A stretch of DNA of 64,000 nucleotides from an uncultured Gammaproteobacteria bacterium (GTDB taxonomy: Bacteria > Patescibacteriota > Patescibacteriia > UBA11705): assembly GCA_964413735.1 (NCBI GenBank), contig CAYPSS010000001.1, forward strand, positions 140,679 to 204,678, read 5' to 3'. Of the stretch, positions 8,647 through 54,161 are shown one piece after another (positions within the stretch are counted from its first letter, which is position 1; the number at the start of each line of letters is the position of its first letter). Made by a program: the position numbers and the translations under genes. The notes beneath the pieces were generated by a model, which saw nothing but the letters and a program-made list of their open reading frames with translations, was not told the origin of the DNA and searched no databases.

Positions 8647-9159
8647 TTAAGATTGTTGTAGTTTCCTGATAATGGGTTGAACCGCCGGATGCTTTGATTT
8701 CTTGGTCGGACTTTGGATCAATAATGTTTCTTGCCAGTAATTGTCCATTGACGTAGTTCGGCTATAGGTGGCCACTTCTTGTGTATCGGTATAATAAATA
8801 AAGGTTCTTAAATCACTCTTGTGAAACCAGCTAATATTTTCTGGACAATGAAGAATAACGATTTTGGCAATTTCAACTTCGCCATCGCGACTTTGTGGTT
8901 TTTGGCAAATTGAAATTACGGCAAAATATTGAGTATCTTTTTCTTTGAGAAAAGGAAAACAAATTCCAAGTTCATGCCATTGATTAAAAAATCCAATGTC
9001 CATCGGAGTAAAGTTTAGATACCATTGAGCCGTTAATTTTTTCACTTCATCTTGATTCAGACCAAGAGCGGAAAAAATCCAACCGACTTTTTCAAATAAA
9101 CATTTGAGAATAGCATTTTGATGAATTTTCTTCCTAATTAATTTGACGGTATCTGCCAT
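8647..9159 (-). CDS. hypothetical protein, paralog family A (170 aa)
   Basis: shares motifs with 9250..9759 product (GLNQ(D/E)EVK.L..QWY, ATYSRT, GKHP.VQ); own TTGACA-N17-TAAGAT promoter and SD gtcggagga. Confidence 0.55.
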   Translation of the reverse strand: MADTVKLIRKKIHQNAILKCLFEKVGWIFSALGLNQDEVKKLTAQWYLNFTPMDIGFFNQWHELGICFPFLKEKDTQYFAVISICQKPQSRDGEVEIAKIVILHCPENISWFHKSDLRTFIYYTDTQEVATYSRTTSMDNYWQETLLIQSPTKKSKHPAVQPIIRKLQQS

Positions 9160-9249
9160 TATTCCTCCGACATTTTTAATGCGTAGTTATCTTAACAAAA
9201 TCGTAACTCTTGTCAAATAAAAAAACAAGACATTGTCTTGTTTGTAGTA

Positions 9250-9759
9250 TTAGGCTTTTTGTAATTGGGCAATCAGATGTTGAACTCCCGGATGTTTTCC
9301 CTTGTTATTCGGATTTTGGATTAACAATAATTCTTCGCTGGAATTATCCTTAAGTACAGTCCGACTGTATGTAGCTACTGTTTGAGTATTCACATAGTTA
9401 ATGAAAGCGTTTAAATCTCCATTTTTAAACCAATCATCATTAGGTGTCTGGATAACAATGATTTTGGTTATTTCGACTTTTTCACTAGGGTCACGGGTTT
9501 CCTCGGAGTAGGAAACTACGACATAATAGTGAATATCAGCTTGGAGAAAAATTGGAAAGCAAACGGCAAATTCAGAGATGCGATTCCAAGAATCAGTAGT
9601 ATTTCGGGCAAATTCTATATACCATTGATTAACCAAACTTTTAACTTCTTCTTGATTGAGACCAAGAATTTTAAAGATCCAAGCGGCTTTTTCAGAGATA
9701 AATCTTAAAACCGTTTTTTGTACTGTTTGTTCATAGAGGAGTTTGATTTTTCTTTCCAT
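9250..9759 (-). CDS. hypothetical protein, paralog family A (about 169 aa; start moved to MERKIK after SD gaggtga)
   Basis: paralog of 8647..9159; promoter atttgacaaaaaatattcccctgctaagatg; track ORF begins 30 nt earlier. Confidence 0.55.
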   Translation of the reverse strand: MERKIKLLYEQTVQKTVLRFISEKAAWIFKILGLNQEEVKSLVNQWYIEFARNTTDSWNRISEFAVCFPIFLQADIHYYVVVSYSEETRDPSEKVEITKIIVIQTPNDDWFKNGDLNAFINYVNTQTVATYSRTVLKDNSSEELLLIQNPNNKGKHPGVQHLIAQLQKA

Positions 9760-9862
9760 TATCACCTCAGATTTTGAATGCGTAAGCATCTTAGCAGGGG
9801 AATATTTTTTGTCAAATAAAAAGAAGCGGTTTGAAGGCCGCTTCTTTGCGTAAAAATAAGCA

Positions 9863-12091: not shown

Positions 12092-12625
12092 TTATTTTCT
12101 TTTATCTGCCAATGTACAAATAACTTGCATTCCCGTTATGATTATTTGCTTTAGACTTTGGACATAGGCACTATGATTGTATTTGCCCGTCTGAGGATTA
12201 ATTGCTTTTTTGATAGCGAGTAAATATAGACTTCGTACATCAAGAGAGCATAGCATTACCACTATTTCACGCATACTTAGAGTCATTGTTTTCGGATCAA
12301 AAGATGTACTCGATTGCTGAAAACGATGAGGCATCATGTTGGTTAAGGTTTCAACGTATTTATTGTAAGCGGTGTGATTGAAATTACCGTTTTTTGTTGC
12401 CAAATTAATACCGGCCATCATCAAAAATTGTAGCGGAGTTTCTAGGTAAAGGTTTCGAGCTGAATCTATCGTAATCCCTTGCGCTAAAATTTTTAATCCT
12501 TGTTCTGTTGCCCGATCTCGTTGGTTGAATGCTTGTTGATTGGCAAATGTTTGAATAAATCGACAGCCATAACGAGGATGTTGAGAGTCAAGGTATTCGT
12601 AAACAACATAATAAGGATTTGCCAT
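12092..12625 (-). CDS. hypothetical protein, paralog family B (about 177 aa; start at MANPYY after SD aaaggag)
   Basis: aligns with 12714..13241 product (YxVV(Y/F)EY(L/I)D..S..RGCRFI, LLAI(K/E)K(A/S)I(N/D)P(Q/D)TG); track N-terminus overlaps its own promoter. Confidence 0.55.
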   Translation of the reverse strand: MANPYYVVYEYLDSQHPRYGCRFIQTFANQQAFNQRDRATEQGLKILAQGITIDSARNLYLETPLQFLMMAGINLATKNGNFNHTAYNKYVETLTNMMPHRFQQSSTSFDPKTMTLSMREIVVMLCSLDVRSLYLLAIKKAINPQTGKYNHSAYVQSLKQIIITGMQVICTLADKRK

Positions 12626-12713
12626 GGCATCTCCTTTTGAAAGGACGTTTAAATTTATCATAATAATAAATTATTGTCAATCAAAAAAAACAGGACTTTA
12701 TCCTGTTTATTAA

Positions 12714-13241
12714 TTAAAATTCTTCTTCTGAACAGCCAAAAAATGATTTTATGCAAGTATTGATATTTCGATTATAGGCCACGTCATTAAATTCTCCGGT
12801 ATCCGGATCAATGGATTTTTCAATCGCCAGTAATACCAAACCTCTGCCATTGTCGTTCTTTTGACGAAGCGCAAGAATTTCATTTTCAGTAACTCTCATC
12901 TTGGGGTTGTGAAAAAGTTTTTGACTTTCAATAAAGCGTCGCATGAAAATCTGACGCATAAATTCAACTTTCATTTTGTAAAGTTCAAAACTGAAATTTT
13001 CTCCGTAAGTGGCATCGCCTACACAAGAACGCATCAAGCATTCCAGAGGAACTTCATTGCAGAGTTTCTGAGCCTCTGCTTCAGAAATTCCTTGAGCAAT
13101 TACTTTAATGATTCCATTCTCTTCTGATGTTTCTCGAGAATCAAAAGCTGTTTTATCGGCATAGTTGATAATAAAGCGACAGCCACGATAATCGCTTTTT
13201 GGATCAATGTATTCAAAAACAACAGAGTATTCATTTCCCAT
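12714..13241 (-). CDS. hypothetical protein, paralog family B (about 175 aa; start at MGNEYS after SD aaggaggg)
   Basis: paralog of 12092..12625; promoter TTGACA-N17-TATTAT upstream. Confidence 0.55.
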   Translation of the reverse strand: MGNEYSVVFEYIDPKSDYRGCRFIINYADKTAFDSRETSEENGIIKVIAQGISEAEAQKLCNEVPLECLMRSCVGDATYGENFSFELYKMKVEFMRQIFMRRFIESQKLFHNPKMRVTENEILALRQKNDNGRGLVLLAIEKSIDPDTGEFNDVAYNRNINTCIKSFFGCSEEEF

Positions 13242-13574
13242 TATTGCCCTCCTTGGGGTGAGAAAAAAAGAATACATTACATAATATCAATAGCAGTACG
13301 TTTTGTCAATTGTTTAGAAAAATAAAAAACAGGACGTTGTCCTGTTTGAAGTTAATCACTGAAAATCATTTCAAGAGTTTGAATGGTTAAATTTGACACA
13401 CCTGATTTTTGTAATTGGTCGCGTTTGCGGGCTAGATCAACAATTGGTTGGCAATTGAATTCTCCAGCGGATTTGTTTCTTCGGTGTTGATGATAAATGA
13501 TTAGCTGGCGTAAATATGCTTGTAGCATTTTCTTTTGTTTTTTCGTACAAAGGAAATAAATTATGAGCATTTTG

Positions 13575-37087: not shown

Positions 37088-38728
37088 ATGGGTTCTTTAC
37101 AACCTCTAACGGAGGATATAACAATGGGTTGGCGAAAACGACATTTGCTTGGAATCACTGAATTTACTGTTGATGAAATGGCTTACATCATGCGAAAAAG
37201 TCGGGAAGTGGAAATTGCTTTGCAACGACACGATCAAAGAGGGTATCAGTTTATCACTGATCCTGATGTGGTAGTGGGTAAGGCGATGTTTGAAGACAGC
37301 ACCAGAACACGAATCAGTTTTGAAGCAGCTGCTCGTTTATGCGGTGCGGTTGTGGAAGGTTTTGATTCAGCCAAAGGCACTTCTTATTCCAATAAAGGTG
37401 AGTCAACGGCGCATACCATGATTATGCTAAATGAATATCGAGCCGTGGTTGCTTTTGTTAGACATCATCTTGATGGTGCTCCACGTCATATTGCGCAAGT
37501 AATGCAACAGCGACAAATGTGTGGTGCACCTTTTACCGGAATCATTAACGCTGGCGATGGGAAGCATGAACATCCCACTCAAACCATTTTGGATCGTTAC
37601 ACGATTTTGAAAGCATTAAATCGTTTGTCGCCAGATAGTGATCATCAATATTCATTGCGTGGATTAACTATTTTGCTCGCTAATGATCTGAAATATGGGC
37701 GAGTTCCACATTCCAATGTCAAGGATTTTGCCCGTGATAAAGTGCATTTTATTTTTGTGGCTCCACCGCAAATGCAAATGCCGGAAATGTATCTTCGTTA
37801 TATTGAAGAGTGTGGCAGCACTTATGAGATGCATGATCGTTTGGATGATGAAGTTTTGCATCGGCCTGATGTTGTCTGTATGTTCCGTAGTCAGTTTGAA
37901 AGAATGCCTCCGGAAATTCAAGCGGAATTACGGGCGACCAGAAATGATTTTATTATGACACCGGAAAAAGTAAAAGCCATGAAACGCGAAGCGATTTTGC
38001 TTCATCCTTTGCCGATTCCGCGCTGGGATCCGGAAATTCATCCGTTGGTTGATAATTTATCGCAAGCCATGTATTTTGAACAAGCCGGTAATGGTATTCC
38101 GACCAGAATTGTGGAAATTGCTTTAACGGCCGGATATTTGGGCGAAGATTTTGAGGGCCAAACTTTTGTGGAAGAAACAGAAGAAGATATTTTCTTTACC
38201 CAGCGTCCGCATGTGGCGCGAGAGCATGATGGTTTGCACAGTATTCGTCCGATTCAAGATGGGGTGGTAATTGATCATTTGCCACCCGGTGAAGAAATCA
38301 CTTTGCTCATGATGCTTCATCATCGAAAAGGCGATGAACATCGAATTGCGACGGTGGAAAAGAAAAACCATCCCGGACAATACAAAGGAATGTTGATGTT
38401 GCCGGGCCGTGAGCTGACGATTGATGAATTGCGATTGGTTGGGGCGCGCGTGGGTGGACGGTTAACGCATGGTGAACCGGTAACCGTCAATACCATTCGT
38501 GGCGGACAAGTGGTGCAAAAATTGGATTTGCAAATGCCGCGTGCAGTGGTAGGGCTTGGTTCATGTAATAATATTATTCGTGATGCGCAAGGTAATGTCA
38601 TGGGTGGTTGTATTGCCCACCCGTATTTCAATGAACATGCGACGCCTCATTTTGTACGCGTGGCGGAAAATCTTTATCGTTGTTGGTATTGTGACCAACT
38701 GCATCAAGCCAGTGAAATTTTTAGCTAA
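37088..38728 (+). CDS. pyrB: aspartate carbamoyltransferase catalytic domain fused to PyrI-like regulatory domain
   Basis: 546 aa; STRTR, HPTQ, RSQFER, HPLP motifs (1-330), then PyrI-like IQDGVVIDHLPPG and C-terminal C..C/CWYC zinc domain; alternative start 37124 (MGWRK) after SD acggagga. Confidence 0.75.
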   Translation: MGSLQPLTEDITMGWRKRHLLGITEFTVDEMAYIMRKSREVEIALQRHDQRGYQFITDPDVVVGKAMFEDSTRTRISFEAAARLCGAVVEGFDSAKGTSYSNKGESTAHTMIMLNEYRAVVAFVRHHLDGAPRHIAQVMQQRQMCGAPFTGIINAGDGKHEHPTQTILDRYTILKALNRLSPDSDHQYSLRGLTILLANDLKYGRVPHSNVKDFARDKVHFIFVAPPQMQMPEMYLRYIEECGSTYEMHDRLDDEVLHRPDVVCMFRSQFERMPPEIQAELRATRNDFIMTPEKVKAMKREAILLHPLPIPRWDPEIHPLVDNLSQAMYFEQAGNGIPTRIVEIALTAGYLGEDFEGQTFVEETEEDIFFTQRPHVAREHDGLHSIRPIQDGVVIDHLPPGEEITLLMMLHHRKGDEHRIATVEKKNHPGQYKGMLMLPGRELTIDELRLVGARVGGRLTHGEPVTVNTIRGGQVVQKLDLQMPRAVVGLGSCNNIIRDAQGNVMGGCIAHPYFNEHATPHFVRVAENLYRCWYCDQLHQASEIFS

Positions 38729-38735
38729 AATTAAA

Positions 38736-38758
38736 ACCTCGAAAATCGAGGTTTTTTT
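38736..38758 (+). terminator. intrinsic terminator after pyrB-pyrI fusion (cctcgaaaatcgagg + T7)
   Basis: perfect 6-bp stem + T-tract. Confidence 0.65.
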
Positions 38759-38962
38759 GTGCTCAAAGTTCAATAATTCGTATATTCGTGGTTTTTGTAT
38801 ATTTGTTTTCATATTTTTTACTCAGACTCTGAAACAAGTTCAGAGTGAGATAAAAAACTTTTCACTTTCACACTCGTTATGCTTGTCCTTATTGACAACT
38901 AAAAATATTATGTTAAGATAGTCAATCCGCCCAGAGCGGAGGTTCTTTGACTGGAGGTTGGT
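38759..38962 (+). repeat. about 205-bp upstream cassette (hairpin actctgaa/ttcagagt, TTGACA-N17-TAAGAT promoter, 5'UTR hairpin, SD), copy 1
   Basis: about 97% identical to 39653..39858. Confidence 0.8.
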
Positions 38963-39616
38963 ATGGGAGAAGTAGTAAGATTGATTAAGTGTCCGATTTG
39001 CAGAAAAACATTTTCTGGTAGAGACGTGTTTAAATCACACATTATGGATTGTAAAAAAAATCAAAATGTCTTGTTTGTAAAAAATGAATTTATGGATATG
39101 TTTTCTCCTGGGACTTGTATTTGGGTCCATCGTCCAGCATTGGAGAAGGATTATCCTCAATTTAGGGAACAGGTATATGCTTTTTTGAATGCAAACAATT
39201 ACATTGCTGGTCAGATCTTATTTTCAAATTGTGATATCCAGTTCTTAACGGAAGAAACATCACCAGATAATAAGAGAAAAAGAAAGCAATTTATTAAGAT
39301 GGTTTTTACTTTGGTGATTTGGTTCCCGTATAATGATCGCGATGATTATGATTATACAAATGGAGAAGATTTGGCGCTTAGTTTGTCAGCAACTTTTTCT
39401 GGACAATTTCATACTATTCAGAAATCTAAGAGGTTTGTTAAGTTGAGTACACGAACATGTTACCCAGAAAAACGTTATTTTGAAAGTGATTGTGGAATTA
39501 TCGTTATTTATGATAAAGACACAAGGGCACAAATTTATTTTGCCCGCCAAGCCTCTGATGTCAGAATGGACACTAATGCCTTTAGTGATTTCGTAGAAGA
39601 GATAATTCCTAAGTAA
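38963..39616 (+). CDS. N-terminal C2HC zinc-finger protein, family D (217 aa)
   Basis: IKCPICRKTFSGRDVFKSHIMDC (C-x2-C-x12-H-x3-C); paralog of 39859..40563 (about 25% identity). Confidence 0.55.
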   Translation: MGEVVRLIKCPICRKTFSGRDVFKSHIMDCKKNQNVLFVKNEFMDMFSPGTCIWVHRPALEKDYPQFREQVYAFLNANNYIAGQILFSNCDIQFLTEETSPDNKRKRKQFIKMVFTLVIWFPYNDRDDYDYTNGEDLALSLSATFSGQFHTIQKSKRFVKLSTRTCYPEKRYFESDCGIIVIYDKDTRAQIYFARQASDVRMDTNAFSDFVEEIIPK

Positions 39617-39652
39617 AAAACAAATTAGGCCAAGACAATGTCTTGGTTTTTT

Positions 39653-39858
39653 GTGCTCAAAGTTCAATAATTCGTATATTCGTGGTTTTTGTATATTTGT
39701 TTTCATATTTTTTACTCAGACTCTGAAACAAGTTCAGAGTGAGATAAAAAGCTTTTCACTTTCACACTCGTCATGCTTGTCCTTATTGACAACTAAAAAT
39801 ATTATGTTAAGATAATCAATCCGCCCAGAGCGGAGGTTCTTTGACAATGGAGGTTTGT
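39653..39858 (+). repeat. about 205-bp upstream cassette, copy 2
   Basis: near-identical to 38759..38962; starts right after terminator ccaagacaatgtcttgg+T. Confidence 0.8.
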
Positions 39859-40563
39859 ATGGGGAAAATGCTAACTAAGTTGTTTAGATGTCCTAATTGC
39901 AATCAGCCATGTTATGATGCTGAAAGTTTGCATGAACATAAAAAGACTTGTTCTCAATATAACTACATGAGGAATTTTTACGATAGAGTGATGAAAGAAT
40001 TTCGTTCGGAAGGTTGTTTGCTTGTTTCTCGTAGTGTGGTAGAAAAGGAATTTCCCCAATTGGCTTCCCAGGGATATTGCCATATCAATGCGGTTAATCA
40101 AGTGGCTTGTGAAATTTTGCATTTTGATTGTGATTGTCGAGTGGTTAAAAATAGTAAGAAAAAAAGGGTTGCCAATCATCGAGTACAGAAGGGCGTTTCC
40201 TCTGATATACCTATTTTTAGGCTTAAGTTGACTTTGATTGTTTGGTTCCCTTCATCTCCTGATAAAATGTTTTGTGATGGGAAGGATCAAGCTTTTAAAT
40301 TTGAAGCCAATTATCAGGGATCGGTAGATGAATTGTTTAAGGAACCGGATTTGCGGTATTTGTATGAATATGATGGCTGGGGTCCTGGTCGTGTGCAAGG
40401 GTTTGTTTGTGATGATGGTATCCGTTTCACCTTGTTGTCGGTGGGAAGTTTGGCTGATATTTTCCATGAAAACAACGCGAGAAAACGGGCGAAAATGGGG
40501 AGTGATAGAGATTATCACATGACTTCTCCACGAATGATTTTTTTTGATCGTCATATCCGATAA
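39859..40563 (+). CDS. N-terminal C2HC zinc-finger protein, family D (234 aa; start MGKMLTKL after SD ggaggt)
   Basis: FRCPNCNQPCYDAESLHEHKKTC; track ORF starts 18 nt earlier. Confidence 0.55.
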   Translation: MGKMLTKLFRCPNCNQPCYDAESLHEHKKTCSQYNYMRNFYDRVMKEFRSEGCLLVSRSVVEKEFPQLASQGYCHINAVNQVACEILHFDCDCRVVKNSKKKRVANHRVQKGVSSDIPIFRLKLTLIVWFPSSPDKMFCDGKDQAFKFEANYQGSVDELFKEPDLRYLYEYDGWGPGRVQGFVCDDGIRFTLLSVGSLADIFHENNARKRAKMGSDRDYHMTSPRMIFFDRHIR

Positions 40564-40658
40564 TATAGCATTCTATTAAATCAAGTAAATCAAGACAATG
40601 TCTTGGTTTTTTGGTATAAAAAAACACCTCCGATCAAGGAGGGTGTTTTTATTGGTAA

Positions 40659-41831
40659 TTATTTTACTTCTTTGGTTTCTTCTGTTTCTTCCGTAGTCTC
40701 TTCTTTAACTTCTTTTTTCTTACCTTTTTTCTCGTTCATTGCTTTGAGGCTTAAACCAAGTCGATGTTCATTTGGTTCAATGGAAACAATCATGAAAGAC
40801 ATATTATCCCCGGGTTTGGCAATTTGAGTAATGTCATCCACTTGTTTATCAGATAATTCGGAAACATGAGCCAAGCCATGAATGTCTTGGTCAAGTTCGA
40901 CGAACAATCCGAATGGATTGGCTTTGATAACTTTACCTTCCACCACTTGGCCAATTTTGTATTTGCTGGCAATATCAAGCCAAGGATCATGTTGTAATTT
41001 TTTGATTGATAAGAAAATTTTTGAACCTTCAATGTTAATGATCTCGGCTTTGATAGTTTCTCCTACTTTGAATAAATCGTTTGGATCATCAATTCTTTGC
41101 CAAGCAAGTTCGGAAATATGTACCAAACCTTCCAAGTTTTCACCGAACTTAATGAAAATACCAAAGTCGGTAATCGCGGTGATGTTACCTTCTACCATGT
41201 CACCGACTTTATATTTTTCCAAAACATCGCGTTGGGTTTCTTCCCAGGCGGCTTTTTCGGAAACAATTAACTTCTCGGTTTCTTTATCAACATCTATGAC
41301 TTTTACTTCAAAGTCTGAGCCAACATAACTTTTTAATTTTTCCAAAATTTTGTTCTTATCACCACCCGGTACGCGTGGATAATGTTCTGGATTTAATTGT
41401 GAAACCGGCAAAAAGCCGTTGAGGTGATTGACTTGAACCAATAAACCACCTTTGTTGGCGTCCAAAATTCGCGCCTTGATGATTTTGTTGCTTTCTTTGT
41501 GTTGATTAAGGGTATCCCAAGCTTTTTGATTACCGGCAAAGCGGAAGGATAATTCTACCATGTCCAGTTCGTTTTCTAAATCAATAACAGTGGCTTCGAT
41601 TTCCGCGCCGACCGTTAGTTCATCGTTTTGACCTGATTCCAAGAAAAGTTCTTTTTTGCGGACAATACCGGTGGTCATTCCTTCAATATCCACCAAAACT
41701 TCGGACTTAGTAACGCTAATAATGGTTCCTTTAACCAATTGACCGACTTCCAATGGTTTGAATCCGGCTGAAGTTTTCTCCAATAGTTTTCCCATGGTAG
41801 AGTCGTCAGTGGTTTTTTTAACTGTTGTCAT
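40659..41831 (-). CDS. rpsA: 30S ribosomal protein S1 (four S1 domains)
   Basis: 390 aa; repeated S1 OB-fold motifs (GxV..I..fG.FV.......GLvH.SE). Confidence 0.85.
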   Translation of the reverse strand: MTTVKKTTDDSTMGKLLEKTSAGFKPLEVGQLVKGTIISVTKSEVLVDIEGMTTGIVRKKELFLESGQNDELTVGAEIEATVIDLENELDMVELSFRFAGNQKAWDTLNQHKESNKIIKARILDANKGGLLVQVNHLNGFLPVSQLNPEHYPRVPGGDKNKILEKLKSYVGSDFEVKVIDVDKETEKLIVSEKAAWEETQRDVLEKYKVGDMVEGNITAITDFGIFIKFGENLEGLVHISELAWQRIDDPNDLFKVGETIKAEIINIEGSKIFLSIKKLQHDPWLDIASKYKIGQVVEGKVIKANPFGLFVELDQDIHGLAHVSELSDKQVDDITQIAKPGDNMSFMIVSIEPNEHRLGLSLKAMNEKKGKKKEVKEETTEETEETKEVK

Positions 41832-42127
41832 AAAATAAAATTTCCGCTCGTAAGCGGATAATACTATAAGTAGTTAACCCGCTGTGATTATGGACAATCA
41901 CAGAGCAAGTCTCGGAGCAATTTGGCATTGTTTGGTCACCAATGTCCGAGGATTATTAATTAATGTTCTTAAAGTATAATGATTTTTTTCGTTCTTGTCA
42001 AGAGGTGAAAATAATGATGGCAACTGAAATATTTGGGGTTTTTGGGCTTGTGTTTTATCCTATATTTTGATAAAATAATTGCAGGATTATTGCGCCTTTG
42101 AATTTTTTAATAATTTAATTTCATTTT

Positions 42128-46355: not shown

Positions 46356-46865
46356 TTATTGTTTGTCTTCATCTTCTACAATTCGTGCTTCTGGATGCAA
46401 ATAGGCTTGAATCACCTTGTTGATCATTTCATTCTGAGCTTTTTCGCGATCTTGTTCTTGTCTCATCCCGAGAAGCATTTGATCAAAGTAATCAATCGGC
46501 TTGATATAACGCACATCAATAATGTAGTTGTCGCAAATGGGAGAAAAAACTACCGGAGCAATCAAGTTGTCAAACCATACGAATGATACCGGATTGTCTG
46601 GATTAAGCGTCTTCAACCGTTGCTTGTTGTCTTCACTCTTTTCAACTTCATACCGCAAGGAAAATTGCTGTTGCACAGTACTTTGGTAGTTGAAGAAAAG
46701 GTATTCATTGCATGATGAATCTCTGGAAGTAGAAGTAATGGTGGTGGTAGATGAATTCCCAGATGTTGGATTTCTTGTCATGACAAAATACGCTACAATT
46801 GCAGTCAAGGCTAACCCAATCATGAAAATCACAAAATAGCTTTCATTCCTTTTACTTATTTTCAT
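46356..46865 (-). CDS. secreted/membrane-anchored hypothetical protein, paralog family E (169 aa)
   Basis: N-terminal TM/signal; shares LNP(D/Q)N.VSFV...P(V/I)...(I/M)C..Y(I/V)(I/V)D core with the two neighbours; own TTGACA-N17-TATAAT promoter and terminator. Confidence 0.5.
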   Translation of the reverse strand: MKISKRNESYFVIFMIGLALTAIVAYFVMTRNPTSGNSSTTTITSTSRDSSCNEYLFFNYQSTVQQQFSLRYEVEKSEDNKQRLKTLNPDNPVSFVWFDNLIAPVVFSPICDNYIIDVRYIKPIDYFDQMLLGMRQEQDREKAQNEMINKVIQAYLHPEARIVEDEDKQ

Positions 46866-46956
46866 AAACCCCTCTCTGTGTTTGGGGGCTATTAATTATA
46901 GTTTAAATTTGTTGATTTGTCAATAATAAAAAACGGATCATTTGATCCGTAGAATT

Positions 46957-47418
46957 TTAATTTGCCATGAGCCATTGGTAAAAATATGTTTCGCCTGCCA
47001 GTTGCGGTTCTAGTTGACTGATATACCTGGTTTTTAGCTCAATCATTTTTTGATGCAAAATTAGAAAATCATCTTTTGGTTGCCCGGCCATTAAATCAAC
47101 AATATAACCTTTACAAATTATTGAATAGTACACCGGGATGATTTGTCCGTTATGAACAACAAAGCTCACAATATTTTGTGGATTCAATAAACTCAGTCTT
47201 TGTCGATTTAAGTTGGACATTTCCAATTGATTTTTTATCATCTCTTGTTGAGCCGGGAATCCATAGCCATTTTTTTGCAAAAATGGTTCACATTGTAAAG
47301 AGCTTTGAGCATGGAGGAAAAATAATCTGGGTTGTTCACTTTGTTTTGTTAAAACACGACCCAAGGCACCGGTAAACAAAAAAATTACAATCAGTGGAAT
47401 GAGCATTAATTTTGGCAT
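46957..47418 (-). CDS. secreted/membrane-anchored hypothetical protein, paralog family E (153 aa)
   Basis: as above; promoter gttattgacaaatcaa...taaaat, SD aaaggagag. Confidence 0.5.
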   Translation of the reverse strand: MPKLMLIPLIVIFLFTGALGRVLTKQSEQPRLFFLHAQSSLQCEPFLQKNGYGFPAQQEMIKNQLEMSNLNRQRLSLLNPQNIVSFVVHNGQIIPVYYSIICKGYIVDLMAGQPKDDFLILHQKMIELKTRYISQLEPQLAGETYFYQWLMAN

Positions 47419-47512
47419 TGGCGCTCTCCTTTGTTGTTGAAGAACAAATTATTTTAGCACAAAATATTGATTTGTCAATAACAAAAAAGCGGATTGTTTA
47501 ATCCGCTTAATT

Positions 47513-48325
47513 TCATGGATGTTTGATGGCCACGCAAGTATTTGCCAGGCAGCCACTTATGGTTCCATTCTGGAGGAGGATGATTGCGTGAAAGCCGATC
47601 GATAACTTTTTCCCTTGAGTATCCAGAAGGTATTGCATGGCGCCTTGGCGACCGATGTAATACCCGAGAATTGGGTCAAAGAAAACATCATGAAAAATTT
47701 CACCATTGATTTTATACACTTCACAAGAAAAGTATTCTGTATCCTTGGTCTCGGAATTCCAGCATTGCAGTGCGGAGCTGAATCCGGGTTGGCGGTAGTA
47801 TTCTCGAGTTCCCATGTTGGCGCAAATCGGATGTTTCACTGGGTCAACCAAGCGACACCATTCATACATCACTTCGGCGTTTCTCTTAACGTTGAGTGTC
47901 AACCCATTGGGCTTAATCGGTTCGCTTTCCTTTTTCATGACTTCAAGCATGTCATGCATGTCCAAGAGTGGCATACCCTTGGCTTGGTCGATAACGTACC
48001 CTCCGCACATCGGTTGCAGGTACACCGGCATGACCTTCTGATCTACTAGAACATAGGTGCTCAGATGATCAGGATTGAGCAAATTCAGTTGTTTCATGTT
48101 TTGCGCCGATTGCTCGGCCTTTTCCTTCATTTCATGTTGCTGATTCATGGTACCCAAACCATTTTTTTGCAAATAATCACTGCAAATATGGTTGGCTCGC
48201 AGAGAATTGGTTTCAGCAATTGTTTTTTCATGGCTAGAGCTATTTAGATTGCTAACAATAGTATGTAGCAAAGTACCCAGAGAAATAATAACTAGAGAAA
48301 CAATTATGGATTTGCCAATACTCAT
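47513..48325 (-). CDS. secreted/membrane-anchored hypothetical protein, paralog family E with C-terminal Cys-rich extension (270 aa)
   Basis: as above; SD gaaggaggg; extra about 110-aa Cys-containing domain. Confidence 0.5.
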   Translation of the reverse strand: MSIGKSIIVSLVIISLGTLLHTIVSNLNSSSHEKTIAETNSLRANHICSDYLQKNGLGTMNQQHEMKEKAEQSAQNMKQLNLLNPDHLSTYVLVDQKVMPVYLQPMCGGYVIDQAKGMPLLDMHDMLEVMKKESEPIKPNGLTLNVKRNAEVMYEWCRLVDPVKHPICANMGTREYYRQPGFSSALQCWNSETKDTEYFSCEVYKINGEIFHDVFFDPILGYYIGRQGAMQYLLDTQGKKLSIGFHAIILLQNGTISGCLANTCVAIKHP

Positions 48326-51228: not shown

Positions 51229-51918
51229 ATGAATGCAGAATTTCCCATACAATCAAAATTCCCAACTGAAGATATTAAAGCAACATTAAAAAGGAATTTG
51301 TTTTTAGTTGATGTTATTGAAAATGAAAAACAGGAACAGTGTAAGGAAATTTCCAAAGAACTTGAAAAGAGGTTTGGGCAATACTCTTGGTTTTATGGAT
51401 TGTCATTAATGGGATCTAATCTCAGAGGATATGGGACGAAATCGTCAGATGTTGATTTTAAAATTTTTTATGATAGTTCTGAAATGTCGATGTCAAGGCT
51501 GGCAATGATTGTAAAACAGCATATTAAAGAAGTAGAGGAGTTTTTTGGTTTTGAATCCGGTCATATTTCCGTTCCTTATTTTGTTGGGTTTAATCTTGAC
51601 CTGATTAACAAAGGTTTACATGATGCTAAGGGGCAAGATCGCTTTAAGGCGTTGCTTACCCTAAAAGATTTGAGTGGGCCGATAGTTGGAGATAAAGTAG
51701 TTGAAGTTCGAAGAAAAATAAAAAATGTTTTATCTCAATTAAAAATGGAACAGAAAAGAACAATCCTTGATCAAGTTGTTGATTATGCAGTGCAAGAAGA
51801 AGAACTTGGAGAAAAAAAGTTAATGCAACGTTTGGGGATGGGAAATGATGAAATGGGGGAATTTTGGGAGGTAAGGCGTAATTTATGGGAAACACATATT
51901 AATGACCTTTGGTCTTAG
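51229..51918 (+). CDS. minimal nucleotidyltransferase (Pol-beta superfamily, KNTase/MNT-like) with helical C-terminal region containing an Rx5-6H HEPN-like motif
   Basis: 229 aa; GSNLRGYGTKSSDVDF fits hG[GS]-x9-13-DhD; C-terminal VRRNLWETH; 28-nt gap after the Mur ligase gene. Confidence 0.55.
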   Translation: MNAEFPIQSKFPTEDIKATLKRNLFLVDVIENEKQEQCKEISKELEKRFGQYSWFYGLSLMGSNLRGYGTKSSDVDFKIFYDSSEMSMSRLAMIVKQHIKEVEEFFGFESGHISVPYFVGFNLDLINKGLHDAKGQDRFKALLTLKDLSGPIVGDKVVEVRRKIKNVLSQLKMEQKRTILDQVVDYAVQEEELGEKKLMQRLGMGNDEMGEFWEVRRNLWETHINDLWS

Positions 51919-51951
51919 ATACATAATGTTATAAATTATTAATCTAAACAT

Positions 51952-52407
51952 ATGACAACTTCAAAAAAAATTTTATTTTTTTTGGTGTTACTGGTTTTGA
52001 TTGTCGCCGGTTGGTGGTTTTTTAGCGCGCGTGAATCATCTCCGGCGCTGAACAACAATCAGTTGGTTAATGAACAAAATCAAGACAACCAAAATGTTGG
52101 TTTAGCTAATCCGGCTAGTGTGAATTGTCTTGATCAAGGTGGTCAATTGGTAATGAAAGAAAAGCCGGATGGTAGTCAGTATGGTCTTTGTTACTTCGAT
52201 GACAATCGCGCTTGTGAAGAGTGGTCTATGTATCGCGGGGATTGCCCGGTCGGGGGCATGAAAACCACTGGTTATGATACTGAGGCACAAAGATTTTGTG
52301 CTTGGAATGGTGGTAGTACTACAGCCACGGAAAACGCTTTATGTGTTTTGCCTGATGGTCGTGCTTGCTTGGCAGATGATTTTTATCTTGGCCAATGTGA
52401 AGAATAA
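51952..52407 (+). CDS. secreted DUF333-like (putative-hemolysin family) protein with two Cys-rich repeats
   Basis: 151 aa; signal/TM then NPASVNCLDQGG...GLCYFDDNRACEEW...GDC repeated. Confidence 0.55.
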   Translation: MTTSKKILFFLVLLVLIVAGWWFFSARESSPALNNNQLVNEQNQDNQNVGLANPASVNCLDQGGQLVMKEKPDGSQYGLCYFDDNRACEEWSMYRGDCPVGGMKTTGYDTEAQRFCAWNGGSTTATENALCVLPDGRACLADDFYLGQCEE

Positions 52408-52433
52408 ATTATAATAAGGTTTAAAATAAAAAA

Positions 52434-52452
52434 CAGTCGATATTATCGACTG
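52434..52452. terminator. palindromic terminator cagtcgatattatcgactg, bidirectional, shared by the DUF333 gene and ZnF paralog 52463..53026
   Basis: perfect 7-bp stem; T-tract on minus strand; near-identical hairpin at 53177..53197. Confidence 0.6.
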
Positions 52453-52462
52453 TATAAATGTA

Positions 52463-53026
52463 TTATTCCAGTTTTGTTAAAGCATAGTGAGCACTTTTTT
52501 CAATTTGTCGAAGTTGTTCTCTGATTTCACTGATTTGTTCATCGGTTAGAGCTTGTTTCCCAAAAAAGGAGTGCTTTTCACCTTTATAAACCCCTGTTTG
52601 TAAAAATGATTCTAAACAATAAATCAATTTTTCTCTGGTAATGTCAGAGAGATGATCAGTAAAGTATTCGCTAACAATTCCATTCATATTAACCACCCTA
52701 TATTGAATATAGATCCCATAATCACCATCAACAGTTTGAACAGCAGAATTATCATTTTTAACGCTAATTCCCGTAACTTCAACTAAAAGAAAGTTCACGC
52801 CCTCAACTTCAGAGGAAATACCGTGGATTGGCCCATAGAAAAGGGCGCCTGCTTTTACATGAGCTTGGCCATGTAAATTGATTCTTAGAAAAAGAAAATC
52901 TCCGTGCTGTATAAATTCTTCAATTAATCTACAAACATTTTCATGATGAATTGCCTCATTCCCAGTTTCAAAATCTTTATTGCAATGTTCGCATTTATAA
53001 CGAGTCACTTGAATCTCTTTTGCCAT
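52463..53026 (-). CDS. N-terminal C2HC zinc-finger protein, family D' (187 aa)
   Basis: YKCEHCNKDFETGNEAIHHENVC (C-x2-C-x3-F-x7-H-H-x3-C); paralog of 53204..53758. Confidence 0.55.
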   Translation of the reverse strand: MAKEIQVTRYKCEHCNKDFETGNEAIHHENVCRLIEEFIQHGDFLFLRINLHGQAHVKAGALFYGPIHGISSEVEGVNFLLVEVTGISVKNDNSAVQTVDGDYGIYIQYRVVNMNGIVSEYFTDHLSDITREKLIYCLESFLQTGVYKGEKHSFFGKQALTDEQISEIREQLRQIEKSAHYALTKLE

Positions 53027-53106
53027 ATCAACCTCCAGTATTGGGCGTTTATCACGCCCGAAAAAATGTCAAAAAACATTGATACTTGATTTTAACTTAT
53101 TCATGG
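53024..53106 (-). repeat. about 80-bp conserved promoter/5'UTR cassette with operator-like palindrome GGGCGT-N5-ACGCCC (53043-53059), copy 1
   Basis: identical over about 78 bp to 53756..53838. Confidence 0.8.
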
Positions 53107-53203
53107 TTTTTGTCAACTGAATTACATAATAAGTTTCAAGAAATAATTTTTTAGACGGATAATTGTCAATTAAAAAGCAGTCGATGTTATCGACTGCTTG
53201 GTT

Positions 53204-53758
53204 TTATAAGGGGTTTAATTTACCCCAAGCATGATTGAAGTTGTCTCGAGCTTCCAGAATTTGATCGCTGATTCTTTTTAATCCGTTGGGGGAAATCACT
53301 TGAGGGTGGAAGAAAAGAGCGGAACGCATTTGCAAAATACCGGTTGTCAGATAGGTCTTGAGTCGTTCAATTAATGCTACTCTGGTGATCCCTGACAAAT
53401 TATCGGTCAGAGTATATTCTTGACTTGATTTACCCGGCAAAACTTTGCACTTTAAAACGAATTGGTATGTATCTTTTTTTTCTCTTTCGGCAATTTCAAA
53501 CCAAGTTACTTCCACTAAAACAAAATCATTGAATTTTCTTTCCGAAGTGAATTCTTCAATTTGGTCACAAAAAGCTGCCGCTTCTTGTAACTCCGCATAT
53601 TGCGAAACGCCAATATTCATGAATAATAGAGTGCCAGGTTTAACGAATCGGGAAATGAGTTCACAAAGATCTTCGTGATAGGTAGCTTCTTGTTGGGTTT
53701 CAAAATGACATTCGCAATAATCGCACTTGAATTGTCGTACTTGTATTTCACTTGCCAT
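53204..53758 (-). CDS. N-terminal C2HC zinc-finger protein, family D' (184 aa)
   Basis: FKCDYCECHFETQQEATYHEDLC; terminator gcagtcgatgttatcgactgc downstream. Confidence 0.55.
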   Translation of the reverse strand: MASEIQVRQFKCDYCECHFETQQEATYHEDLCELISRFVKPGTLLFMNIGVSQYAELQEAAAFCDQIEEFTSERKFNDFVLVEVTWFEIAEREKKDTYQFVLKCKVLPGKSSQEYTLTDNLSGITRVALIERLKTYLTTGILQMRSALFFHPQVISPNGLKRISDQILEARDNFNHAWGKLNPL

Positions 53759-53838
53759 ATCAACCTCCAGTATTGGGCGTTTATCACGCCCGAAAAAATG
53801 TCAAAAAACATTGATACTTGATTTTAACTTATTTATAA
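53756..53838 (-). repeat. about 80-bp conserved promoter/5'UTR cassette with GGGCGT-N5-ACGCCC palindrome (53775-53791), copy 2
   Basis: identical to copy 1. Confidence 0.8.
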
Positions 53839-54161
53839 GTTTTGTCAACTGCATTATAGTTGTGAATTTAATTAGATGTTTTGGTTGAAAAAAATAGCAT
53901 TTTTTTGCGATTAATTTACCTTAAATTAGTCAAATATATTGAGTTGTGGACAATAAGCTTGACAAGTACTTGACGATAGGCTTATTTTTTGCTAGAATAT
54001 ACTCATATTAATAACTTCCCTAAGCGGGAACTGTATCTTTTGATTGTGAGTCGGAGATAGGGTTTCCAAAAAAATTCACATGATTATTAGGGGATTTGTG
54101 GACAATTTAACTTAACTTTTTTAAAAAACTCGTTCCTCATGAAGAGGGAGGAGTATATTTT

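Follow-up and report, generated by a model that had tools for sequence, protein, structure and literature searches.

The 64-kb window analysed here, a stretch of 64,000 nucleotides (nt) from contig CAYPSS010000001.1 of an uncultured bacterium, carries on its minus strand two adjacent genes, A (52463..53026) and B (53204..53758), in which a conserved leader with a GC-rich palindrome precedes coding sequences (CDSs) that differ. The open reading frame (ORF) of gene A specifies 187 amino acids (aa), with an N-terminal C2HC zinc finger (C12, C15, H28 and C32), an apparently novel alpha/beta body and a C-terminal helix; gene B, of 184 aa, is a paralog with a similar finger and architecture. The two products are 32% identical across 186 aa (BLASTP, E 1e-31), in line with their description as diverged tandem paralogs in a first-pass annotation of the window. 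Synonymous divergence between the two CDSs is saturated (pS 0.78), and 66 of the 105 nt in the first 35 codons are identical. With a ratio of non-synonymous to synonymous divergence (omega) of 0.2-0.3 for the finger and 0.4-0.6 for the body, both genes can be considered real and constrained; positive selection was rejected, omega being below 1 wherever it was measured. Two antisense ORFs of 48 aa (52943-53089 and 53675-53821) that end within the leaders were dismissed, their common part being the leader-derived tail only. In each unit a near-consensus sigma-70-type promoter is followed by a leader of approximately 56 nt, a strong Shine-Dalgarno (SD) sequence, the gene for a cytoplasmic protein of 184-187 aa and an intrinsic terminator of its own. 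By these predicted features A and B are tandem copies, each transcribed separately, of an orphan gene confined to one lineage, in a bacterium of the Patescibacteria (Candidate Phyla Radiation, CPR), and both units look built for strong autonomous expression.

When the units are compared at an offset of 732 nt, a perfect tract of 82 nt (53020-53101, equal to 53752-53833) is found to be 100% identical between them; it starts in the later half of the promoter spacer, takes in the -10 box, leader and SD, and stops 7 nt into the CDS. The identical upstream region had been recognised previously, although its length, given as about 78 bp, was slightly short. A second identical block, of 12 nt, covers the -35 box (53108-53119), and beyond this the upstream identity of A and B is at the random level (15/40). 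The putative promoters, at 53089..53116 for gene A and 53821..53848 for gene B (both minus strand), each have -35 and -10 hexamers at a spacing within the 16-18 nt expected of the sigma-70 type: TTGACA (53116-53111 in A), a 16-nt spacer and TAAAAT (53094-53089 in A), with the same hexamers and spacing in B and a score of 11/12 in a consensus scan at both genes. A further TTGACA box had been listed alongside this one, and is indeed present, but only the upstream box has a -10 partner; the second (53072-53067) falls within the leader as inferred, with no acceptable -10 box 16-18 nt downstream and no call from the scan, and was rejected as a promoter.

The 5' ends of the leaders were placed on the assumption that transcription starts about 7 nt past the -10 box, giving predicted leaders of about 56 nt at 53027..53082 for gene A and 53759..53814 for gene B (minus strand) that are identical at 56/56 positions. 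Each comprises, in order, a weak AAUGU/ACAUU hairpin containing the second TTGACA, the GC-rich hairpin, the 6-nt linker AATACT and the SD GGAGG (53036-53032 in A and 53768-53764 in B), with the ATG 5 nt further on. Such an SD is unusually strong for a genome in which most genes have none, most of the 52 ORFs of at least 120 aa in the window having AT-rich upstream regions that lack one and only about 10 having GGAG- or GAGG-type sites. At the other end of the units, predicted intrinsic terminators follow both genes on the minus strand, ACAGTCGAT-AAT-ATCGACTGT with a T run after A (52427..52453) and AAGCAGTCGAT-AAC-ATCGACTGCTT with a T run after B (53170..53199), the stems being of 9 and 11 pairs. 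Their common form, CAGTCGAT-AAN-ATCGACTG plus a T run, bears out the previous report of near-identical terminators and, with it, that of conserved flanks surrounding divergent genes, as promoter, leader and terminator have been kept while the CDS differs.

The hairpin, or palindrome, GGGCGT-GATAA-ACGCCC is located at 53043..53059 upstream of gene A and 53775..53791 upstream of gene B (minus strand), in each case 6 nt before the SD and 16 nt before the ATG, so the perfect GGGCGT-N5-ACGCCC sequence that had been annotated is present at both sites. This pattern occurs exactly twice in the window, where 0.02 instances are expected; because both copies lie in one repeat, the likelihood of the element arising by chance was tested separately in random 56-nt leaders, and a perfect 6-bp stem with at least five G-C pairs was found in 2-3 per 10,000 of these (2-3e-4). 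The stem is 83% G+C, compared with 28% in the rest of the leader. The observation is real and non-random. A function as a terminator or attenuator was rejected, as on the coding strand a T run comes before the stem and AAUACU after it, and on the opposite strand GAAAAAA follows. A known riboswitch or leader was likewise rejected, given that no family in Rfam 15 matched the window at its gathering threshold and none matched over the leader at E values up to 5. Searches for other copies with the pattern GGGCGTGATAAACGCCC-N6-GGAGG found no match in GTDB genomes or JGI metagenomes; two matches to the 17-mer in IMG/VR look like chance, the one inspected (L086) being surrounded by GC-rich sequence and followed by neither an SD nor a start codon.

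Comparison across strains was made possible by three Logan contigs harbouring the family, in which the finger gene is each time divergent from rpoB. The first, L001, has both genes, is 97.9% identical to the window and has an identical gene B CDS. The other two, L002 and L003, have one gene only, of a third type, C (cluster P0004), which encodes 180 aa with 46% identity to A; between A and C, synonymous divergence (dS) is 1.0 and non-synonymous divergence (dN) 0.42. Gene C sits between the upstream context of gene B and the downstream context of gene A, an arrangement that could represent either the outcome of a deletion between repeated units or the ancestral single-copy state. For rpoB, dS between the window and L002 is 0.16, and between the window and L003 1.07. 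The promoter and leader of the window are nevertheless identical to those of L002 and L003 at 60/60 positions, against 41-46/60 in the flanking upstream intergenic sequence and approximately 38-45/60 in the CDS, and in each of A, B and C identity begins at the -35 box and ends at the start codon. Among six copies the promoter hexamers are invariant and the first half of the spacer is variable, while the hairpin is unchanged in 6/6; the terminator stems are fixed in five copies, where the sole variable position is the central loop base (T, C or A). The L001 leader copies have a total of eight changes, two near the 5' end, one a deleted T and five in the linker between hairpin and SD, the 17-nt hairpin, SD and start codon being untouched (0/8). 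The GC-rich hairpin is, on this comparison, the invariant core of the leader, the palindrome having been found in every orthologous or paralogous copy. An upstream ORF within the leader (ATG at 53079, beginning MFFDIFSGVINAQYW, with a 64-aa version at gene B) was rejected both because its length differs between the units and because loss of 1 nt from the gene B leader of L001 shifts its frame.

A perfectly conserved island that starts at the -35 box and stops at the start codon, set between diverged sequences and kept across lineages, indicates that the leader is likely to be under purifying selection and not only subject to intragenomic gene conversion, which alone would be unable to produce identity between lineages. 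The description of the upstream regions as 'homogenised' is accordingly the part of the first-pass annotation that the cross-lineage data disfavour. Concerted evolution through gene conversion or unequal crossing-over between the tandem units, under which the hairpin would have no specific role, would account for several features of these loci: the upstream repeat of a second finger locus, described below, is 199 nt long and 98% identical, extending well past a plausible regulatory core; strains differ in having two copies or one, the single unit joining the upstream side of B to the downstream side of A as would a deletion between repeats; and mosaic imports are seen both in gene A (codons 11-73, dS 0.22 versus 0 elsewhere) and upstream of the L001 gene B. 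We nonetheless regard it as quite unlikely to be the explanation, as the leader is identical across lineages in which flanking DNA has diverged to a dS of about 1, the boundaries of identity are functional ones in all three gene types, A and B have different promoter spacers inside one genome, and a perfect GC-rich stem is improbable by chance.

The mosaic imports are apparent from the distribution of differences between the window and L001. Of the 25 codons that differ in gene A, 23 fall in codons 11-73 (dS 0.22, dN 0.11), and dS is 0 in codons 81-187 and throughout gene B; codons 11-73 are thus best read as an imported patch, with its 5' end in the leader linker, and several of its residues agree with the C type. 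Similarly, the region upstream of gene B in L001 resembles the version in L002 and not that in the window, and appears to have been imported. On a larger scale, positions 5050-6556 of L002 are 100% identical to 3460-4961 of L003, a stretch that opens approximately 40 nt before rpoB begins, spans the finger gene and reaches into metK. In rpoB itself the two contigs have a nucleotide difference of about 15% (dS 1.14), with a sharp breakpoint at the 5' end of the gene. Because this identity runs from the rpoB start through metK, L002 carries a recombination tract from an L003-like lineage; a gene-specific mobile cassette was rejected, since an ordinary recombination tract has this extent. The conserved flanks may therefore also serve as recombination anchors in a pool of divergent alleles. 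The interval between the Mur ligase and finger genes (window 51229-52407, L002 6002-9829) has a strain-dependent gene content: the window has a 229-aa Pol-beta-type nucleotidyltransferase at the place where L002 has a 494-aa MATCAP-family protein, and the metK and 106-aa genes that come after the finger gene in L001 and L002 are both missing from the window.

Such exchange raises the alternative of a fast-evolving accessory or conflict locus, in which the variable body would be the object of selection and the flanks mainly anchors for allele swapping, a scenario compatible with a role for the leader as RNA. Consistent with this, the A and C proteins differ at 54% of positions beside an rpoB that is 94-99% identical, gene content differs between strains (nucleotidyltransferase versus MATCAP; metK and the 106-aa gene present or absent), a recombinant patch has its 5' end in the leader, and the family is extremely restricted. 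It is still an improbable account: omega in the body is 0.4-0.6, not above 1; the dS between A and C (1.0) equals that of rpoB between the window and L003 (1.07), such that A and C may be fast-evolving orthologs moved by a large tract; no signature of defence systems, phage or mobile elements was found; and gene E of the second finger locus is nearly invariant between strains.

The restricted distribution of the family was established by two database searches. A word-indexed search of 5.8 billion clusters returned only four 90% clusters, these being A, B, P0002 (a 90% variant of A) and P0004, and an exhaustive HMMER search of 1.84 billion representatives returned only three full-length clusters, the remaining matches being confined to the finger. 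These finger-only relatives contain several fingers, in some cases together with GIY-YIG domains, and score above the DUF7128 threshold. All clusters of the family come from one Patescibacteria clade. Among GTDB species the closest rpoB sequences are those of Patescibacteria/Parcubacteria metagenome-assembled genomes, and because even the best are only 64-67% identical the host is taken to be a poorly sampled CPR lineage. No finger gene was found near rpoB in the rpoB loci of 80 other genomes. Pfam, PHROGs, PADLOC, NCBIfam, PDB sequences, phage genomes and IMG/VR yielded weak finger-level matches at most: there was no PADLOC match for the finger proteins that would link them to anti-phage defence, PHROGs had finger-level matches only (E > 0.01), tblastn against INPHARED had no match, and IMG/VR had finger-level matches only, to 87-aa phage proteins. 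Genes A and B constitute a lineage-specific orphan family with a strongly constrained leader, in which a C2H2-type finger protein and a leader hairpin, each of a known kind, are brought together.

The second finger locus, alike in design, lies on the plus strand at 38753..40613 and consists of a tandem pair of genes (38963-39616 and 39859-40563) with 25% identity. The 199-nt upstream repeat (38753-38951 and 39647-39845; 98% identical) contains TTGACA-16-TAAGAT, a GC-rich hairpin with a 5-bp stem and a 5-nt loop (TCCGC-CCAGA-GCGGA) is found at the equivalent place in the leader, and the genes have paired terminators (CCAAGACAATGTCTTGG). A search for further copies of this leader pattern had no match. 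All four proteins of the two loci have the annotated finger motif, C-x2-C-x12-H-x3-C, and the 16-nt initiation region CTGGAGGTTGRTATGG, common to the second-locus genes and A/B, occurs in the window only at these four genes. The proposal that the four form one superfamily is borderline. In its favour are the shared initiation region, the similar architecture of the loci, a secondary-structure order in the second-locus model that is the same as in A, although the model is poor (predicted local distance difference test score (pLDDT) 52), and an hhalign comparison with a four-sequence profile (probability 46.8%, P 2e-4) whose 81 columns reach into the body. Against it, hhalign with thin profiles gave 5.7%, over the finger only, and Smith-Waterman shuffle tests outside the finger gave z of -1.1 to 0.8. 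We consider a common origin of both finger families probable, albeit unproven.

Gene E of the second locus is nearly invariant in four further, independent Logan contigs (L088-L091). All four end 62 nt upstream of its initiation region, about 30 nt beyond the last copy-specific base of the 199-nt repeat, and such breaks inside the repeat are consistent with its being duplicated in those samples too. A leader hairpin, TCCGCT-TACG-AGCGGA, also precedes the ATG of the S1 gene rpsA (40659-41831, minus strand) by 27 nt (window 41832-41870); its stem (TCCGC/GCGGA) matches that of the leader hairpin of the second finger family, through either coincidence or a shared motif.

An AlphaFold2 model of A, built from a four-sequence alignment, has a pLDDT of 74.7 and a predicted template modelling score of 0.71. 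It bears out the expectation of a C2H2-like finger, with a predicted beta-beta-alpha arrangement (strands 10-11 and 18-19, helix 22-37; pLDDT of the block 78-88), behind which are a modelled beta-rich body and a long C-terminal helix (162-186). The ligands C12-x2-C15-x12-H28-x3-C32 do not vary among A, A', B and C. F19 is retained, Ala25 takes the place of the usual Leu, and the fourth ligand is Cys instead of His, making the predicted finger a C2HC variant. Neither A nor B reached the Pfam gathering thresholds of zf-C2H2, zf-met, zf-C2H2_jaz or DUF7128, scoring 18.2 and 15.6 bits against DUF7128, which has a cut-off of 25.7, and 13-19 bits against zf-C2H2-type models, with cut-offs of 21-27. 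Foldseek found no significant match to the A model in the PDB or BFVD, the remaining approximately 150 residues behind the finger had no family, PDB or fold match, and no helix-turn-helix (HTH) or other DNA-binding domain was detected in the finger proteins. Both proteins are acidic (isoelectric point (pI) 5.3-5.6), with a net negative charge in the first 35 residues (2-5 K+R versus 6-8 D+E), and the positions of the finger helix that normally touch bases are E, T, Q, N or A. Such an acidic finger suggests protein-protein rather than nucleic-acid contact.

These properties bear on whether the palindrome might be a DNA operator, at about +25 to +41, at which a dimeric repressor would block RNA polymerase, whether that repressor were the finger proteins themselves or another regulator. 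A perfect 6-N5-6 inverted repeat is typical of the sites of dimeric regulators, this one is non-random and invariant in six copies, the encoded proteins have a C2H2-type finger and a modelled C-terminal helix long enough that it could mediate dimerisation, and each finger family has its own hairpin sequence, as would be expected of family-specific operators. However, conservation extends over the entire 56-nt leader and not the 17 bp alone, the searches for an HTH or other DNA-binding domain were negative, and a lone finger without basic flanks rarely binds specifically. Because A and B are acidic and their finger regions net negative, with E, T, Q, N or A at the base-contacting positions, recognition of the palindrome by the finger, as either DNA or RNA, is argued against, and the autoregulation by the zinc-finger proteins that had been envisaged is not supported. 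On balance an operator seems unlikely.

Action of the leader hairpin at the RNA level is the explanation we favour, while judging its chances to be somewhat short of even. The stem-loop, just upstream of the SD, would set the stability of the mRNA, the initiation of translation or both; alternatively, the RNA hairpin would be bound by a regulator. Together the consensus promoter, the leader and the strong terminator would form a high-expression cassette. The occurrence of a different GC-rich hairpin at the equivalent place in the second finger family suggests a structural role rather than one operator sequence. Leader stem-loops protect against RNase Y in some bacteria, and an RNase Y is encoded in the window. 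A number of considerations weigh against this reading. The hairpin is positioned at approximately +25, not at the extreme 5' end as are classical stabiliser hairpins, and being without variation it provides no covariation by which an RNA stem and a DNA palindrome could be distinguished. The whole leader folds only moderately better than shuffled sequences (z -1.7 to -2.8), and a predicted pairing between the 5' end of the leader and the spacer separating SD and AUG is weaker in the L001 copy at gene B. The chance of all eight L001 changes missing the hairpin, estimated as (39/56)^8, is about 0.055, which is marginal. In addition, a single narrow clade supplies all the comparison sequences, L002 and L003 are not independent because they have a recombination tract in common, and recombination is active at the finger locus, such that homogenisation is not fully excluded.

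A more ambitious interpretation, which we put forward as highly improbable, is that the leader is a new cis-regulatory element for a Patescibacteria-specific family of C2HC-finger proteins that would act on the transcription machinery and be auto- or co-regulated, the second family being a diverged branch with a leader hairpin of its own. The whole would then be a transcription-factor system, specific to the lineage, based on a zinc finger of eukaryotic style. The proposed role in transcription follows from the constant adjacency to rpoB and from a predicted resemblance of the body to Tudor/SH3-like domains, which together are a lead, not evidence, for a function connected with RNA polymerase.

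Several other features of the window were recorded. Small orphan paralogs form at least five tandem arrays in it, the two finger loci among them (8647-9789, 12092-13277, 38963-40563, 46356-48325 and 52463-53758), and this genome seems generally prone to tandem duplication of lineage-specific genes. The pair at 8647-9159 and 9250-9789 has a common 52-nt upstream repeat (9172-9223 versus 9771-9822, 73%), and the three genes at 46356-48325 encode N-terminal hydrophobic segments and a common 'LNPxN..SFV' motif, with no Pfam match. A 546-aa ORF at 37088-38728, in which OTCace_N and OTCace catalytic domains are joined to a PyrI regulatory-chain allosteric domain, looks like a fused catalytic and regulatory aspartate carbamoyltransferase. 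No tRNA gene was found in the window. Its G+C content has a background of about 0.35, with peaks of 0.42-0.44 at 21-22, 24-25, 26-27, 38-39 and 62-63 kb.

To our knowledge, almost nothing has been described of gene regulation in CPR bacteria, and the leader, were it a functional RNA or operator, would be among the very few cis-regulatory elements defined in this group. The finger proteins would extend the small set of C2H2-like fingers in bacteria by one that has classical spacing and is attached to an unmatched fold. The locus also illustrates phylogenetic footprinting cleanly, through an 82-nt island of perfect conservation with diverged flanks. At present the subject is an orphan family limited to one narrow clade.

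Among known systems, the leader is most readily compared with stabiliser or translation-control stem-loops of strongly expressed genes, such as the ompA and aprE leader hairpins and STAB-SD elements. It resembles these 5' untranslated region elements in combining a stable stem-loop with a strong SD, and differs in that its hairpin is internal (at approximately +25) and not at the 5' end, has no Rfam match and has been identified by sequence analysis alone. The protein is closest to the classical C2H2 fingers (zf-C2H2 clan; closest model DUF7128, PF23447), with which A and B share the ligand spacing C-x2-C-x12-H-x3-C, a conserved F four residues past the second Cys and the predicted beta-beta-alpha fold, their best weak Pfam matches being DUF7128, zf-C2H2_jaz and zf-met at 15-19 bits against thresholds of 21-27. 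By contrast, the last ligand is Cys and not His, the finger is acidic and not basic, and it stands alone, at the very N-terminus of a bacterial protein. The Ros/MucR proteins offer a bacterial precedent for a single Cys/His zinc site in a proposed nucleic-acid binder; theirs is a larger, basic domain of non-classical fold that binds AT-rich DNA, whereas A and B have no Ros/MucR match in Pfam at E values up to 1 and a finger that is acidic and of classical spacing. Finally, the position of the finger gene, always beside rpoB, recalls the Tudor/SH3-like domains that bind RNA polymerase, including the CarD RID and the C-terminal Tudor domain of PcrA/UvrD; as small barrels match promiscuously and Foldseek returned no match, the likeness of the modelled A body to these domains is offered as a lead only.

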